Shown here: positions 27,142 to 33,089 of the stretch, piece by piece
Numbering within the stretch: position 1 is the stretch's first letter
How the letters are laid out: each line of letters opens with the position of its first letter
Origin: a virus
Lineage: Duplodnaviria; Caudoviricetes
Length of the DNA: 64,000 bases
Virus record (IMG/VR): IMGVR_UViG_3300032321_002024
Span: 32,001-96,000 of that record
Reading direction: 5' to 3' (one strand)
Notes under the pieces: model-generated
What the model was told of the DNA's origin: nothing
Databases searched by the model: none
What the model saw: only the letters and a program-made list of their open reading frames with translations
Program-made: the position numbers and the translations under genes

Positions 27142-29694
27142 ATGAATATAAAAGTAACGAAAAGAAATGGTAAAAAAGAACCAGTAATGCTGGATAAAAT
27201 TTTAGAAAGAATTAATCAACAAACTTATGGATTAGATCCAAAATGGATTTCACCGTTTGATGTCGCTCAGAAAGTTATTGCTGGTGTGGCTCCTGATATT
27301 AAAACATCTACATTAGATCAATTGGCAATGGAAACAGCTGCTTCCTTAGCCACAAAACATCCGGACTATTCCGTATTAGCGGCAAGATTGGCAATTACAG
27401 CACTTCATAAAGAAACAAAAAAATCTTTTTCTGAAACATCAAAAGATTTATATAATTATATAAATCCAATTACGGGAAAACATTCTCCTATTGTATCAAA
27501 AGAATTTAATAAAATTGTTCAGAAATATGCTGACGAATTAGATTCGGTTATTGTTCACTCAAGAGACCACAATTTTGATTATTTTGGTTTTAAAACTTTA
27601 GAAAAATCTTATCTTCTTAAGATTAATGGAGTTGTTGCTGAAAGACCTCAGTATATGTATATGAGAACTGCAATTCAAGTGTGGGGTGAGAATTTAGAAA
27701 AAGTTATTGAAACTTATAACACACTTTCTGAAGGATATTATACACATGCTACTCCAACTTTATTTAATTCAGGAACAACAAGACCACAATTATCTTCTTG
27801 TTTTTTATTAGATACTGAAAGTGACTCAATTGAAGGTATTTTTAATACACTTAAAGAATCAGCTCAAATCTCTAAAAATGCTGGAGGTATTGGAATCTCT
27901 TTTAATAAAGTAAGAGCTAAAGGAACTTACATCGCTGGAACTAACGGAACATCAAATGGAATTATTCCTTTCTTGAAAATATTTAATGAAACTGCTAGAG
28001 CGGTTGATCAAGGTGGTGGTAAACGCAAAGGTTCAATTGCAATCTATATGGAACCTTGGCATGCGGATATTATGGATTTCTTAGACCTTCGTAAAAACCA
28101 AGGTAAAGATGAAATTAGAGCAAGAGACCTTTTCTTAGCTATCTGGAATAATGACATTTTTATGGAGAGAGTTGACTTAGACGAAGATTGGTCATTAATG
28201 TGTCCACATGAATGTGAAGGTTTAAATGAATCATATGGTGAAGAGTTTAAAACACTTTATTTAAAATATGAATCAGAAGGAAAAGTTAAGAGAACAGTAA
28301 AAGCAAGAGATGTTTGGAATAAAATTTTAGAGTCACAAATCGAAACAGGAACTCCTTATATTCTTTATAAAGATTCTATCAATGAGAAATCAAATCAATC
28401 TAATATTGGTATTGTTAGAAGTTCTAATCTTTGTGCTGAAATTGTCGAAGCAACTGGTGTTACAAAAGTTCAAAAAGAGATTCTTCAAAATAAAGAACTA
28501 CTTGAATCTTTAGGATTAGGTGAGTTTTATGGTGAAGAATCGGTTAATGAAACGGCTGTTTGTAACTTAGCTTCGATTGCTCTTCCTAAGTTTATTAACA
28601 AAAATAAAACTTATAACTTTAATAAATTATATGAAGTTGCTTATACAGCAATCGTCAATTTGAATAATGTTATTGATGTTAATTACTATCCTTCAGAGAC
28701 GGCTAGATTTTCAAACGTATTGCACCGACCAGTTGGATTGGGAGTTCAAGGACTTGCTGATGTTTTCTTTACACTTAATTTACCTTATGATTCAGAAGAA
28801 GCAAAACAACTGAATAAAGAAATTTTTGAAACTATTTATTACGCATCTATTAAATCCTCTTGTGATTTAGCTAAATCTCAAGGAACTTATGCTACTTACA
28901 AAGGTTCTCCTATTTCAGAAGGTAAATTTCAATTTGATTTATGGGGCACTAAACCCACAAAAAGATGGGATTGGGAAAAATTAAGAGAAGATGTTAAAAA
29001 ACATGGTGTTAGAAACTCTTTAACAACTTGTATTATGCCAACTGCTTCTACAGCTTCTATCTTAGGAAATGAGGCTTCTTGTGAAGCTCAAACTTCAAAT
29101 ATGTATACTAGAGGAGTTCTTTCTGGAACATTTATCTTAGTAAACAAATATTTAGTGAAAGAATTAGTTAAGTTAGGACTTTGGGATGATAATTTAAGAA
29201 GAAAAATTATTGCTGAAAATGGATCTGTTCAGAATATTCCACAGATTCCAACAAATATTAAAGAGGTTTTCAAAACAGTTTATGAGATTAAACAAAAAGA
29301 TGTTATTGATATGGCTGCTGAGAGAGGAGCATTTATTGACCAAACTCAATCAATGAATATCTTTATGGATTCTCCTAATTTTGCTAAGTTAACTTCGATG
29401 CACTTTTATGGTTGGGGTAGAAGAAGTTTATTGAAAGATGGTAATGGTCAAATTATTTTACCACAAGATGAAAATTGTGAAGTGGTTTATGATAAAGATG
29501 GTAACCCAAGATTCTATAGAGAAAAGAAAAACAATCTTAAAACTGGTATTTACTACTTAAGAAACAAATCTGCTTCTGATGCTGTTAAATTTACAGTTCA
29601 AGAAGAAAAAGATGTTAAGTCTGTTGAAGAACAAATGGCTGAAATCAGTTGTTCACTTGATAACCCAGATGATTGTTTAGCTTGTGGGGCTTAA
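27142..29694 (+). CDS. nrdA: Ribonucleotide reductase class Ia alpha subunit with ATP cone
   Basis: VTKRNG cone, ATPTLFN, SSCF, SNLCAEI, VCNLAS, MPTAS, C-terminal CLAC. Confidence 0.97.
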   Translation: MNIKVTKRNGKKEPVMLDKILERINQQTYGLDPKWISPFDVAQKVIAGVAPDIKTSTLDQLAMETAASLATKHPDYSVLAARLAITALHKETKKSFSETSKDLYNYINPITGKHSPIVSKEFNKIVQKYADELDSVIVHSRDHNFDYFGFKTLEKSYLLKINGVVAERPQYMYMRTAIQVWGENLEKVIETYNTLSEGYYTHATPTLFNSGTTRPQLSSCFLLDTESDSIEGIFNTLKESAQISKNAGGIGISFNKVRAKGTYIAGTNGTSNGIIPFLKIFNETARAVDQGGGKRKGSIAIYMEPWHADIMDFLDLRKNQGKDEIRARDLFLAIWNNDIFMERVDLDEDWSLMCPHECEGLNESYGEEFKTLYLKYESEGKVKRTVKARDVWNKILESQIETGTPYILYKDSINEKSNQSNIGIVRSSNLCAEIVEATGVTKVQKEILQNKELLESLGLGEFYGEESVNETAVCNLASIALPKFINKNKTYNFNKLYEVAYTAIVNLNNVIDVNYYPSETARFSNVLHRPVGLGVQGLADVFFTLNLPYDSEEAKQLNKEIFETIYYASIKSSCDLAKSQGTYATYKGSPISEGKFQFDLWGTKPTKRWDWEKLREDVKKHGVRNSLTTCIMPTASTASILGNEASCEAQTSNMYTRGVLSGTFILVNKYLVKELVKLGLWDDNLRRKIIAENGSVQNIPQIPTNIKEVFKTVYEIKQKDVIDMAAERGAFIDQTQSMNIFMDSPNFAKLTSMHFYGWGRRSLLKDGNGQIILPQDENCEVVYDKDGNPRFYREKKNNLKTGIYYLRNKSASDAVKFTVQEEKDVKSVEEQMAEISCSLDNPDDCLACGA

Positions 29695-29762: not shown

Positions 29763-30092
29763 ATGAAATATGTAAAAACTTTTGAAAGATTTGCTTTGAA
29801 TGAAAGCCATGATATTGATTTTTCAAGACTTTGTTCTGAAGAACCAGATATGTTTCGTCTTGATTTAAGTGATGAAGGAATTGAACTTACTCGAGATCAA
29901 GAAGCTTTAGTTTCTGAATTTTCAAAGTTAGAAGAAGAATGTGTGAGAAAATCAACAAGTGGTCAATACTCCAAAGTTGTCGGGACTCCATCGTATAATA
30001 GAAGAATTGAAATACTTAAAGAATTAGGAGTTACTGATACTTCAGAATTTGAAGAAAGGTGGGCGGAGTTTGATAAACACGAAGGATTCTAA
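29763..30092 (+). CDS. Putative virion internal protein
   Basis: MKYVKTFERFALNES; upstream region nearly identical to that of 13729. Confidence 0.65.
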   Translation: MKYVKTFERFALNESHDIDFSRLCSEEPDMFRLDLSDEGIELTRDQEALVSEFSKLEEECVRKSTSGQYSKVVGTPSYNRRIEILKELGVTDTSEFEERWAEFDKHEGF

Positions 30093-30262
30093 TAAAAAAT
30101 ACTTAAAAAGGAGAAAATTAAACTTTCTCCTTTTTTTATGCTATAAAAAATCCACCTTCGAAAAAAACGAAATTTTAAAGGTGGATATATAACATACTTT
30201 TAAGAAAAAAAATTTAAATTTTTAACAACTTTTTTATTTTTGGAACTAAAAGTTAGACTGAA

Positions 30263-30344
30263 AATTACCCAGTAGTGAGTTAGAGAGTTACTTCGATATT
30301 TGGATTATGAAAAAACACTCTTTGACAATTTACTCTGGTCAATT
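30263..30344 (+). ncRNA. Structured RNA 1 upstream of Ro60 (Y-RNA-like candidate)
   Basis: Long bulged stem CCAG-T-AGTGAGT-TAGAGAGT / ACTCTTTG-ACA-ATTTACT-CTGG; TACTTCGATAT after 5' strand. Confidence 0.6.
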
Positions 30345-30357
30345 ATATAGGTTATAA

Positions 30358-30575
30358 GCAAACATAGCGATAGTTTGAGATACTTCGATATACAATTTCA
30401 ATTAAGATCGAAAAGTGTCTAATGGCGACAGCTGAGACTACCAAAAAACCGTAAAAGGTGAGGTGAAAAAGTCCGGATGATTCCACGTAAAGGGTTAAGT
30501 GAGATGGTCACTGCAACTATCGGCAAAGTTTCGGGAGAATTCTTTGTAACGCTCAGGCTAAATTATCTTGTTTGC
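30358..30575 (+). ncRNA. Structured RNA 2 upstream of Ro60 (Y-RNA-like candidate)
   Basis: Ends pair (GCAAACA/TGTTTGC; TAGTTTGAG/CTCAGGCTA); same TACTTCGATAT; GC-enriched interior. Confidence 0.6.
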
Positions 30576-30585
30576 AACATTATAT

Positions 30586-30626
30586 AAAAGACCAGATTTA
30601 TCTTCGGATAGTCTGGTCTTTTTTTT
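30586..30626 (+). terminator. Strong intrinsic terminator with cUUCGg loop
   Basis: AAAAGACCAGATTTATC-TTCG-GATAGTCTGGTC followed by a T run. Confidence 0.85.
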
Positions 30627-30658
30627 GTTAAAAAATTAAATAAAATAAAAATAAAGTT

Positions 30659-32110
30659 ATGTCAAAATTTAACCAAACATTACCAAAACAAAAAACACTA
30701 ACTGAAAACTTAGCTGGTGGTCAAGCTTACACTCAATCTAGTGAGTTGGCTCTTGTATCTTTGTTATTGACTTCATTTGTCAATGACCAATTTTATAGAG
30801 GTGCTAAAGATACACTCAATGATTTGAAGAAGTTGTCCGAGAAAGTTAAAGACAAAGAATTTGTCGCTAAATCTGCTATCTATGCTCGTGATAAGTTTGG
30901 AATGCGTAGTATAACTCACGCACTTGCTGGTGAATTGACTTCTCAGTTGAATGGTGTTGAGTGGGGTAAAGACTTTTACAACAAAGTTGTTGTAAGAGTA
31001 GATGACATGACTGAAATTCTTTCTTATTACTTAGCTTACAAAACTGAAAAAGACAATCCTAAGTTTCCAAACTCTTTGAAAAAAGGATTTGCAAAAGCTT
31101 TTGATAAATTTGACGGTTACCAGTTAGCTAAGTACAAAGGAGAAAACAAAGATGTTAAACTAGTTGATATTGTTAACTTAGTTCACCCTGTTCCAACAGT
31201 TAGAAATAAAGAAGCTTTAGAACTTCTTATCAAAGGTGAGTTGAAAAACACTGATACTTGGGAAGCTAAATTATCTCAAGTAGGACAACAAGCTGAATCT
31301 GAAGAAGAATTGGCTGATCTTAAGTCAAATGCTTGGTCAGAACTTATCTCCTCAAGAAAATTGGGTTATTTTGCACTTCTTAGAAACTTAAGAAACATTA
31401 TTACTCAGTCTCCTGGTTCTGTAAAGGCAGCTTGTGAAATGTTAGTTGATGAAAAATTAATTAAAAACTCACGAGTTCTTCCTTTCCGTTTTGCAACAGC
31501 TTATGATGAAATCAATAAAATTGGTTCATCTAAAGAAGTTAGAGACGTTTTGGTGGCTATTAATGGAGCACTTGAAGTTTCTATTCAAAACGTTCCAAAG
31601 TTTGATGGTGAGACTCTTGTTGTTATGGACGTTTCTGGTTCTATGATGGGTAGAGCATCTGAAATTGCTTCTCTTTTTGGAGCTGTTTTAGCAAAAGCAA
31701 ATAACTGTGATGTTATGACTTTTGCAACCGATGCTAACTACAAGTCATACAATCCTTTGGATTCTGTAATGTCTATTAGAAATAGCTTTAAATATTCAGG
31801 TGGTGGAACTAATTTCAAAGCCATTTTTACAAAAGCAAACAAAAAGTATGATAATATATTGATCCTTAGTGATTTACAAGGTTGGATTGGATACACATCA
31901 CCTACAAAGGAATTTAACGATTATAAGAAAATATTTAATTGTAACCCTCATGTGTTCTCATGGGATCTTGCTGGTTATGGGACATTGCAATTTCCAGAAA
32001 ATAATGTTTTTGCTTTAGCGGGATTCTCTGATAAAGTTTTCGATATAATCGAACTATTAAAAACCGATAGAAAAGCTTTGCTAAATGAGGTTAAATCTAT
32101 TCAGATATAA
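30659..32110 (+). CDS. rsr: Ro60/Rsr TROVE + vWA domain RNA-binding protein
   Basis: NLAGGQAY, YQLAKY, TWE, ALLRNLRNI, SRVLPFRF, vWA DVSGSM, GGT, SDLQ. Confidence 0.92.
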   Translation: MSKFNQTLPKQKTLTENLAGGQAYTQSSELALVSLLLTSFVNDQFYRGAKDTLNDLKKLSEKVKDKEFVAKSAIYARDKFGMRSITHALAGELTSQLNGVEWGKDFYNKVVVRVDDMTEILSYYLAYKTEKDNPKFPNSLKKGFAKAFDKFDGYQLAKYKGENKDVKLVDIVNLVHPVPTVRNKEALELLIKGELKNTDTWEAKLSQVGQQAESEEELADLKSNAWSELISSRKLGYFALLRNLRNIITQSPGSVKAACEMLVDEKLIKNSRVLPFRFATAYDEINKIGSSKEVRDVLVAINGALEVSIQNVPKFDGETLVVMDVSGSMMGRASEIASLFGAVLAKANNCDVMTFATDANYKSYNPLDSVMSIRNSFKYSGGGTNFKAIFTKANKKYDNILILSDLQGWIGYTSPTKEFNDYKKIFNCNPHVFSWDLAGYGTLQFPENNVFALAGFSDKVFDIIELLKTDRKALLNEVKSIQI

Positions 32111-33089
32111 AATCATTCTCTGATAGAATTCCTTTTTTTCTATTAATTGACCTTTTTGTTATACAGAGATTTCTAATATCTCCTATAATAGAAGGGTCAA
32201 TTTTATTTATGAATCCAAAGTGTATAGAGATTTTATGATCGATAGATGGGTAATTATTATTATTATGATGTAGGTTATAATTATCCTTTATTAATTCATT
32301 ATCATAATAATCATAACCATTCCAATTTTCTATGAGTCTTTTTTTAACTCTATGTGTTAATTTCCATACCTCATTTTTATAAATATCAAATTCGGTCTTT
32401 TTCTCTATCGGAATATATGGGTTGTATCCATGTTTTTTTTCAAAAAAGTCCCCCTTTATTTTATTTGAAGAGAATATATGGTCAAATCCATAGTTTTTAT
32501 TAAAAGTTTCTTTCTTTTTATCTTTTATAGAATCTAATTTTGAAACATTATCAACTCCAAATTTTTCGATAATATTCTTTTTAAACTTTTTCATAAATTG
32601 TTTTGATTTCATGTGATGTGAAACACCATATTTCTCTATATTTTTTTCAATTCTTGTTTGGTTTATTTCATCTGTTTGTAAATAAAAATCAACACCATAT
32701 TTATCATTATTTGTTTTTTTAGTTTTTTCTATATACTCTTTTGTTTTAGTGAAACTACTTACACCATATTTCTCTATACAGGTTTCTTTTCTTTTCTTTG
32801 ATACTTCCGGATCAGCATAAATACATTTTCTAGAGCATCTTTTGGAATAACCAATACTATATTTCAGATAGTTAACGGGACTTCCACAATAACATAAAAC
32901 CCTATTTTTAATATTATTGTCTATACAATAGATCCTTTCTCCTATACCAGACTCTTCTGGTAGAAATATGGTTCTATTTTTTAACTCAATATTTAACTCA
33001 ATATTTTTAAACCTTGATATTTTTTCTCTTATAGGTAGTTTTATAACTTCTTCAAAATCCATAATGTATATATTAAAAATGACAGTCAC
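32097..33089 (-). CDS. Putative HNH-type homing endonuclease with EKYGV repeats
   Basis: CYCG..CSRKC zinc motif, repeated (E/D)K(Y/F)GV, C-terminal SIDHKIS...NL...INRKK. Confidence 0.7.
   Translation of the reverse strand: MTVIFNIYIMDFEEVIKLPIREKISRFKNIELNIELKNRTIFLPEESGIGERIYCIDNNIKNRVLCYCGSPVNYLKYSIGYSKRCSRKCIYADPEVSKKRKETCIEKYGVSSFTKTKEYIEKTKKTNNDKYGVDFYLQTDEINQTRIEKNIEKYGVSHHMKSKQFMKKFKKNIIEKFGVDNVSKLDSIKDKKKETFNKNYGFDHIFSSNKIKGDFFEKKHGYNPYIPIEKKTEFDIYKNEVWKLTHRVKKRLIENWNGYDYYDNELIKDNYNLHHNNNNYPSIDHKISIHFGFINKIDPSIIGDIRNLCITKRSINRKKGILSENDFISE

Follow-up and report, generated by a model that had tools for sequence, protein, structure and literature searches.

We examined a 64,000-nucleotide (nt) stretch, hereafter the window, of an uncultured Caudoviricetes phage (IMG/VR record IMGVR_UViG_3300032321_002024, positions 32,001 to 96,000). 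The record spans 262.6 kb at 30% G+C, the genome is 84%-complete and the closest relative in GenBank is LR745206.1, an uncultured phage of 634.8 kb. Our subject is a Ro60/Rsr gene, rsr, and two structured RNAs that lie upstream of it on the same strand. Ro60 and Y RNAs are conserved from bacteria to humans; the stem of the Y RNA binds the outer face of the Ro60 ring and gates its cavity, and the other domain recruits a partner. How targets are chosen is still largely open. To our knowledge few bacterial Y RNAs have been investigated so far, and a tRNA-like module is present in nearly all of those known.

The 483-residue product of rsr matched the Pfam TROVE family (PF05731, E 1.6e-20, 74 bits), and weaker vWA-family matches, below the cut-offs of those families, covered residues 318-405. 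Its best solved relative was the Ro60 of Thermus phage phiLo (9KOP/9L5Y; E 4e-25, residues 12-476), followed by human and Xenopus Ro60 with partial matches. The gene product is a predicted Ro60/Rsr orthologue in which a TROVE (HEAT-repeat ring) domain precedes a vWA-type domain. The 566-nt gap before this open reading frame (ORF), at 30093-30658, is the longest internal ORF-free stretch of the window and holds the two elements, RNA1 and RNA2, whose 3' ends lie 320 and 84 nt upstream of rsr (Table 1). A first-pass annotation had singled out this gap, the TROVE gene and two elements of like architecture within it, and its placing of the motif TACTTCGATAT at 30289-30299 and 30381-30391 was exact; AACACTC and AACGCTC precede the 3' stem strands as it described. 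Its length for RNA2 stood at 218 nt, and its estimate of about 80 nt for RNA1 gave way to 73 nt. The strong terminator that it had put between the RNAs and rsr is a hairpin followed by U8 (−18.6 kcal/mol, z = −6.1), which ends 32 nt 5' of the start codon.

Table 1. Features of the rsr locus in window coordinates.
Feature	Position	Strand	Basis or detail
Terminator hairpin of the upstream gene (ORF 29763-30092)	30105-30139	+	14 pairs; terminator-like hairpin scan
Conserved box CCACCUUCGAAAAA ... AAGGUGG, then AUAUAUAAC	30152-30193	+	Sequence-level conservation in L001-L009, partly in L012 and L018
Promoter-like box AACTTTTTT-N11-TAAAAG	30227-30252	+	About 15 nt upstream of RNA1
RNA1, mini Y RNA (predicted)	30267-30339	+	73 nt; fold, covariation, covariance model
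RNA1 H1	30269-30272 with 30335-30338		Bulged U at 30273
RNA1 H2	30274-30278 with 30330-30334		AAU bulge at 30327-30329
RNA1 H3	30279-30288 with 30317-30326		Junction motif UUACUUCG at 30288-30295; apical loop A-rich
AUUAUAUA box, spacer after RNA1	30342-30349	+	Second copy at 30579-30586, after RNA2
RNA2, Y RNA with large module (predicted)	30358-30575	+	218 nt; covariation of outer stems and inner helices
RNA2 H1	30358-30364 with 30569-30575		Bulged U at 30365
RNA2 H2	30366-30370 with 30564-30568		AAU bulge at 30561-30563
RNA2 H3	30371-30379 with 30552-30560		Motif AUACUUCG at 30380-30387
RNA2 effector module (putative role)	30388-30551	+	About 165 nt; multi-hairpin, ends UAACG
RNA2 module Ha	30417-30420 with 30435-30438		Around GC-GACA-GC hairpin
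RNA2 module Hb	30439-30442 with 30462-30465		UACC/GGUG, in two relatives UACU/AGUG
RNA2 module Hf	30498-30502 with 30508-30512		AGUGA/UCACU
RNA2 module Hg	30523-30528 with 30542-30547		GCAAAG/CUUUGU; inner UUC-GGGA-GAA, GGGA tetraloop
Intrinsic terminator, end of RNA1-RNA2 unit	30586-30626	+	Hairpin 30586-30622 and U8
rsr, 483-residue Ro60 orthologue (predicted)	30659-32110	+	Pfam TROVE PF05731

Both RNAs are built on one scaffold. Read 5' to 3', it starts with a closing helix H1 (4 base pairs (bp) in RNA1, 7 bp in RNA2) and a bulged U, followed by H2, a five-position non-Watson-Crick block in which AGYGA faces UNNCU; the third position never forms a consistent Watson-Crick pair and the other pairs are invariant. 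Helix H3 (9-10 bp) ends at the invariant junction motif WUACUUCG. The return strand consists of (A)AC(A/G), the second strand of H3, a 3-nt AAU bulge and the strands of H2 and H1. H3 is variable in RNA1 and near-constant in sequence in RNA2. The invariance of H2 and most of H1 would fit a protein-recognition surface. A D-arm-like pairing of GUAG with UUAC within the 5' strand was set aside, since scaffold copies in tRNA arrays do not retain it (GAUG); it may be an evolutionary relic.

The arrangement is conserved beside related rsr genes. A protein search with Rsr led to 29 IMG/VR loci, which were fetched and joined by one locus from LR745206.1; loci are cited below as L with a number. In about 25 of the related loci ACTTCG occurs exactly twice within the 700 nt upstream of rsr, 82-95 nt apart, and this holds for every locus whose Rsr is 68-89% identical to that of the window. 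More distant loci carry three copies (L026 and L027) or one (L028). A covariance model built from RNA1 (R1), which scores the window RNA1 at 86.4 bits, found a single copy in each related locus and in L028, and three copies in L027. The scaffold persists beside Rsr proteins only 48-51% identical. In relatives the motif is strand-biased, for example seven forward and none reverse, with 0/1 for a reversed-pattern control.

RNA1 folds with a minimum free energy of −19.7 kcal/mol (z −2.5). Across 21 copies from 21 loci (alignment A1), GUAG, UUACUUCG, an A-run and CUC...GG form invariant blocks, and the helix between them changes sequence yet stays paired. When the structure of Table 1 was imposed on A1, 94.7% of cells paired and 10 of the 19 pairs had changed on both sides, eight of these falling among the ten pairs of H3. 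Not one of 500 shuffles matched any of the five measures of covariation, and pairing fell to 30-52% in a slid-partner control. RNAalifold, run unguided, predicted H1, the first two pairs of H2, and H3. The top of the molecule is small, with 5-14 variable nucleotides separating ACUUCG from the conserved A-run.

The outer stems of RNA2 were compared in 20 sequences from three subfamilies, giving 87.9% paired cells and seven pairs with two-sided changes. Four of the five measures gave values that none of 500 shuffles reached; the fifth, the count of further pair types, was unremarkable. Slid controls paired at 25-57%. The covariation falls in H3 and H1 of RNA1 and in H1-H3 of RNA2. Shuffle tests and RNAalifold together uphold the earlier observation that the stems of both RNAs differ in sequence and covary, and near homologous TROVE genes the stem and ACUUCG are retained with compensatory changes.

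Within the roughly 165-nt module of RNA2, hairpins are set around purine-rich linkers, and helices could be assigned outside 30466-30497. Over 12 family-A sequences these helices paired in 94.9% of cells with eight pairs changed on both sides (0/500 shuffles). Ha covaries as GUCU/AGAC, GAUU/AAUC, GAC/GUC and GUU/AAC. Hb encloses a hairpin of variable length in every family-A member and is followed by a conserved AAAAAG linker. In subfamilies B and C the hairpins follow one another in the same order and the AAAAAG and AUCG linkers are present, but the helix sequences are different. The inner helices were checked sequence by sequence, since a MAFFT alignment misplaces the interior; from it RNAalifold gave the outer stems and just three inner helices. 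Three other pairings were discarded. A long-range helix of CUGAGACU with AGUUUCGG as the main fold overlaps the covarying Ha and the GGGA-capped Hg and is broken in most relatives; a UUCGAU/AUCGAA helix pairs in the window copy and is not conserved; and GGUGAAAAAGUCCGG, which resembles an RNase P P4 strand, gave no RNase P match, with a partner strand lacking consistent covariation. A 14-mer from RNA2 scanned over IMG/VR returned mostly chance matches and was uninformative.

A further interior box was seen in the RNA2 of L004-L009, L012, L015, L016, L018, L020 and L021 and is absent from the window copy. About 25 nt past ACUUCG these RNAs read CUAUGA, CUAUCA or CUAUUA, complementary to the 5' scaffold strand (UCAUAG, UGAUAG or UAAUAG). 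The complementarity shows compensatory changes and would compete with the outer part of H3; the pairing could represent a switch or a pseudoknot.

The scaffold is not confined to the neighbourhood of rsr. An IMG/VR pattern scan for its 5' strand returned at least 119 stretches, and because chance alone could give many such matches, 73 fetched loci were searched again with R1. Full-length structured matches were found in 37 of these 73 other loci, often several per locus. A TROVE ORF lay in the fetched stretch in 14 of the 37, usually within a few hundred nt; 18 matched loci were in or abutted tRNA arrays, and five had neither neighbour. Six large contigs with a scaffold copy in a tRNA array were searched over the whole record, and all six encode TROVE elsewhere. 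Only 101 of 50,697 phage records contain any match to the window Rsr. This co-occurrence of scaffold and TROVE is our main argument that the scaffold works with Rsr.

Two additional copies lie in the same genome outside the window. The one at G000:C1:197820-197934 (L032:1501-1615), found by R1, consists of a tRNA-Ile(UAU)-like body whose acceptor stem is lengthened by the scaffold stem. ARAGORN called it a tRNA, the Rfam tRNA model gave it 51.5 bits, and it is wedged between tRNA-Thr and tRNA-Leu in an eight-gene array. With its orthologues in L070, L064 and L036 it presents UAU, UAA and UCU as 'anticodon' triplets, and an ordinary, separate tRNA-Ile(UAU) is present at 193460-193534. The second, which is the fourth copy of the genome, came from a motif scan (about 186902-187030, L041:503-631, some 130 nt) and is conserved in L055, L057 and L065. 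It is tRNA-shaped, with a 7-bp acceptor stem, a D arm and a T arm, and an arm of about 79 nt carrying the scaffold strands in permuted order replaces the anticodon arm; ARAGORN with introns allowed reported a tRNA with a 34-51 nt intron and an inconsistent identity. Three further copies, each sitting between tRNA genes, occur in LR745206.1: one is a mini form, one shows the YrlA architecture by eye without being called by Rfam, and one is tRNA-embedded. In tRNA arrays of related giant phages (L035:1501-1639, L061:1480-1620 and L068:1480-1620) the tops read by eye as T-arm, closed hairpin and D-arm, which is the architecture of YrlA; the Rfam YrlA model did not call these copies. The LR745206.1 array also holds three tandem Rfam tRNA-Sec matches (L034:2387-2746; 41-47 bits, threshold 47), which are probably long-variable-arm tRNAs.

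The same stem thus carries at least five different tops, bearing out more widely than the window alone the idea of a constant stem with a swappable domain. These are a minimal loop, the 165-nt multi-hairpin domain, a whole tRNA body whose acceptor stem the scaffold extends, a YrlA-type T-AS-D core, and a permuted tRNA form in which the permuted scaffold serves as the anticodon arm.

We then compared the RNAs with known Y RNAs. Rfam scans at gathering thresholds over the window and 12 related loci gave nothing, and ARAGORN found no tRNA in the window. Neither RNA has a tRNA-like core or scores at the YrlA gathering threshold (69 bits), and neither matched YrlA or Y_RNA even at E≤10; they are therefore divergent and lack a cloverleaf, as had been noticed at the outset. 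The link to YrlA comes from L026, whose Rsr is 49% identical. Three RNAs lie upstream of it with 5' strands GYAGUGAG...GGUUACUUCG, and two of them align with the Rfam YrlA model at its tRNA-like core, scoring 42.3 and 40.5 bits (E 5e-8 and 2e-7 within that search), short of the 69-bit gathering score. Since these RNAs combine the same 5' strand with a YrlA core, the window scaffold is homologous to the stem of YrlA-core RNAs. RNA1 and RNA2 otherwise resemble YrlA (RF02553; PMC4201824; 10.1101/312249) in lying upstream of Ro60/Rsr on the same strand, in the long stem that joins the two ends and has a conserved motif on its 5' strand, in the design of a putative binding stem with a putative effector domain, and in having more than one Y RNA at a locus, here probably also cut from a single precursor. 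They differ from it in lacking a T-arm, a closed acceptor-like hairpin and a D-arm, in a motif that reads WUACUUCG rather than GNCGAAN0-1G, and in the RNA2 module, which has no known counterpart.

RNA1 also shares features with YrlB/Yrn2: it is a long hairpin, interrupted by bulges and capped by a small loop, and the larger RNA2 accompanies it in tandem upstream of rsr. Its loop, however, is A-rich and not pyrimidine-rich, and no sequence similarity was detected. We know of reports of YrlB homologues only within Salmonella serovars. Metazoan Y RNAs (RF00019) are similar in that their terminal stem contains a bulged nucleotide, the conserved 5' strand forms the Ro60 site and the loop domain varies. 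They show no sequence or covariance-model similarity to the window RNAs, however, and their Ro-contacting GGUCCGA is absent from the latter.

Y RNAs beside phage Ro60 genes are already known. Chen et al. 2014 listed 22 phages with such pairs (PMC4201824), and the phiLo Ro60, the closest solved relative of the window Rsr, binds two tandem Y-like RNAs, Yrl1 and Yrl2, encoded directly upstream of its gene (PMC12135203; 9KOP, 9L5Y). The phiLo RNAs were identified by a CGAA motif in a stem-bulge-stem (PMC12135203), where the window copies read UUCGAU. They were defined by prediction and in-vitro binding, with no covariation or family described (PMC12135203), whereas the window RNAs belong to a large family with a defined scaffold, tRNA-array copies and a 218-nt member. 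The WUACUUCG-junction scaffold, the 218-nt member with its non-tRNA module and the spread of the scaffold through tRNA arrays in three topologies appear to be new; we found no description of any of them in literature searches that left subscription journals mostly outside.

From the observed structure, conservation and covariation, the genomic association with TROVE and the homology of the scaffold to that of YrlA-core RNAs, RNA1 and RNA2 are very probably modular phage Y RNAs in which a constant Rsr-binding stem carries exchangeable effector domains. We infer that both RNAs would be transcribed and processed, that both would bind Rsr and that each module would have a partner. By analogy with other Y RNAs the scaffold would bind the phage Rsr. 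The 165-nt domain of RNA2 would tether Rsr to another factor, as the Deinococcus Y RNA does with PNPase; PNPase is a Y RNA-linked partner in D. radiodurans and Salmonella, and host PNPase has been linked with phiLo Ro60 in vitro (PMC4201824, PMC12135203). RNA1, with its short A-rich loop only, would suit a gatekeeper or minimal form like YrlB/Yrn2, or a stabiliser. The tRNA-type copies would link Rsr with enzymes that recognise tRNA, or would act on the tRNA pool of the phage. Given these further copies with tRNA-like tops, we propose that the phage makes a set of Rsr ribonucleoproteins with different specificities. More tentatively, and with somewhat less than even confidence, we suggest that giant phages and many smaller IMG/VR phages carry a new modular Y-RNA family in which one scaffold is fused to at least five effector tops. 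Under that reading RNase P and RNase Z would free most of the tRNA-type copies from the tRNA arrays that contain them.

Several findings weigh against assigning RNA1 and RNA2 to the Y RNAs. The evidence comes from the sequence of an uncultured phage. An Rfam scan of 30100-30700 at E≤10 returned terminator-like chance matches only, with no Y_RNA, YrlA or tRNA. GNCGAAN0-1G, the motif published for Rsr recognition in bacteria (PMC4201824), does not recur here; the overlap is its CG(A) core, and within ACUUCG the CG alone of that motif is invariant, the bases 3' of ACUUCG being variable. H2 and most of H1 are invariant, and because there is no variation there, covariation neither supports nor contradicts these parts. 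As a whole molecule RNA2 does not fold significantly more stably than shuffled sequence (z −1.6). Finally, L131, a 32.8-kb contig with direct terminal repeats that carries an RNA1-type hairpin, has no Rsr homologue anywhere in the record; this record and that of L139, another locus lacking an adjacent rsr, are both incomplete and so do not show that those phages lack rsr.

An alternative is that the elements form a cis-acting rsr leader, through which Rsr or another factor controls read-through of the terminator by attenuation or autoregulation, and are not stable trans-acting RNAs. Their position directly upstream on the same strand, the strong terminator 32 nt before the start codon and the lack of a separate sigma-70 promoter for rsr between the terminator and the ATG would all be expected of such a leader. 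It does not account for same-scaffold copies more than 100 kb away in tRNA arrays, nor for units that stand apart from rsr: L139 has RNA1, RNA2 and the terminator next to an opposite-strand gene, and L131 has RNA1 and a terminator alone. No conserved alternative pairing between RNA2 and the terminator was found. We consider an exclusively cis-acting leader improbable, and control of read-through could coexist with a Y-RNA role in trans.

The abundance of tRNA genes around the scaffold raises another reading, namely that the elements are degenerate tRNAs, array spacers or processing substrates that do not bind Rsr, their adjacency to rsr being functionless synteny. Half of the scaffold copies sit 0-15 nt from a tRNA gene. 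One copy of the own genome is a tRNA-Ile(UAU) to ARAGORN and reaches 51.5 bits under the Rfam tRNA model, and another is tRNA-shaped with a long insert. RNA1 and RNA2, however, have no tRNA parts, yet are kept beside rsr down to about 68% Rsr identity, and the scaffold itself persists where Rsr is 48-51% identical. TROVE, moreover, is near 14 of the 37 scaffold loci and in all six large contigs, though rare in phages, and the 'anticodon' of the embedded copy shifts among orthologues (UAU, UAA, UCU), unlike that of a decoding tRNA. With these observations a reading as tRNA-derived elements that do not bind Rsr becomes still harder to credit than a leader. Sequence invariance of the blocks GUAGUGA, UUACUUCG and CUCUGG might, lastly, point to an element acting as DNA, such as a protein-binding, recombination or replication site, with incidental RNA structure. 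Compensatory changes that preserve pairing, including G-U pairs valid only in RNA of this strand, the strand bias of the motif and the flanking of the unit by a promoter-like box and an intrinsic terminator make a DNA-level site very improbable indeed.

The well-defined, covarying scaffold is a tool for finding phage Y RNAs in metagenomes. RNA2 would direct Rsr to some partner or substrate, and the partner of its large non-tRNA domain could reveal a new use of Ro60. Y RNAs have been proposed to derive from tRNA transcripts (10.1101/312249), a hypothesis to which the tRNA/Y-RNA chimeras of the tRNA arrays are directly relevant and with which the spread of the scaffold through those arrays agrees; were the family with at least five tops real, the chimeras would be living intermediates of this origin. 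A further suggestion is that Ro60 and the handling of tRNA are linked in phages with large tRNA sets, a point of relevance to tRNA-targeting host defences and RNA repair (PMC7824862).

The genes around rsr gave no RNA-metabolism context: the adjacent ORFs encode a ribonucleotide reductase large subunit, a DUF7487 protein and a DNA methylase, no RNA-repair gene is nearby, and RtcB was not found in the 84%-complete genome. The reductase is a class I large subunit with an ATP-cone (27142-29694, + strand), and the DUF7487 gene (32097-33089) lies on the − strand.

RNA1 and RNA2 would probably form one transcript that starts at the promoter-like box and ends at the terminator after RNA2. The pattern AAACTTTTT-N11-13-ATAAAAG recurs about 15-25 nt 5' of RNA1 in most related loci; no sigma-70 consensus was found at the window box, which we take as a candidate promoter. 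The terminator is present in nearly all related loci. It escaped a simple terminator scan, probably on account of a bulged stem, and was detected by folding instead. No terminator separates RNA1 from RNA2 in the window, and L020 has a U-run 3' of RNA1. AU-rich, UAUA-type spacers follow both RNAs in most related loci; the AUUAUAUA box of the window may be a processing site, a 3' tail or a −10 element. We infer that a single precursor would be cut in the AU-rich spacer, as M. smegmatis YrlA and YrlB are cut from one precursor (PMC4201824).

The RNA-terminator unit can stand alone, without rsr directly downstream. L139:5615-6015, on a contig estimated to be only 18% complete, carries RNA1, RNA2 and the terminator followed by the opposite-strand gene, and L131:7614-7740 carries a solo RNA1-type hairpin (64 bits with R1) with the same kind of terminator and no RNA2. 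In the window the 5' limit of the RNA transcription unit is marked by the terminator hairpin of the preceding gene. Just inside this limit, the flanking motifs of the box at 30152-30193 are kept in relatives even where its hairpin potential is lost, and the box is possibly a promoter element or a small hairpin.

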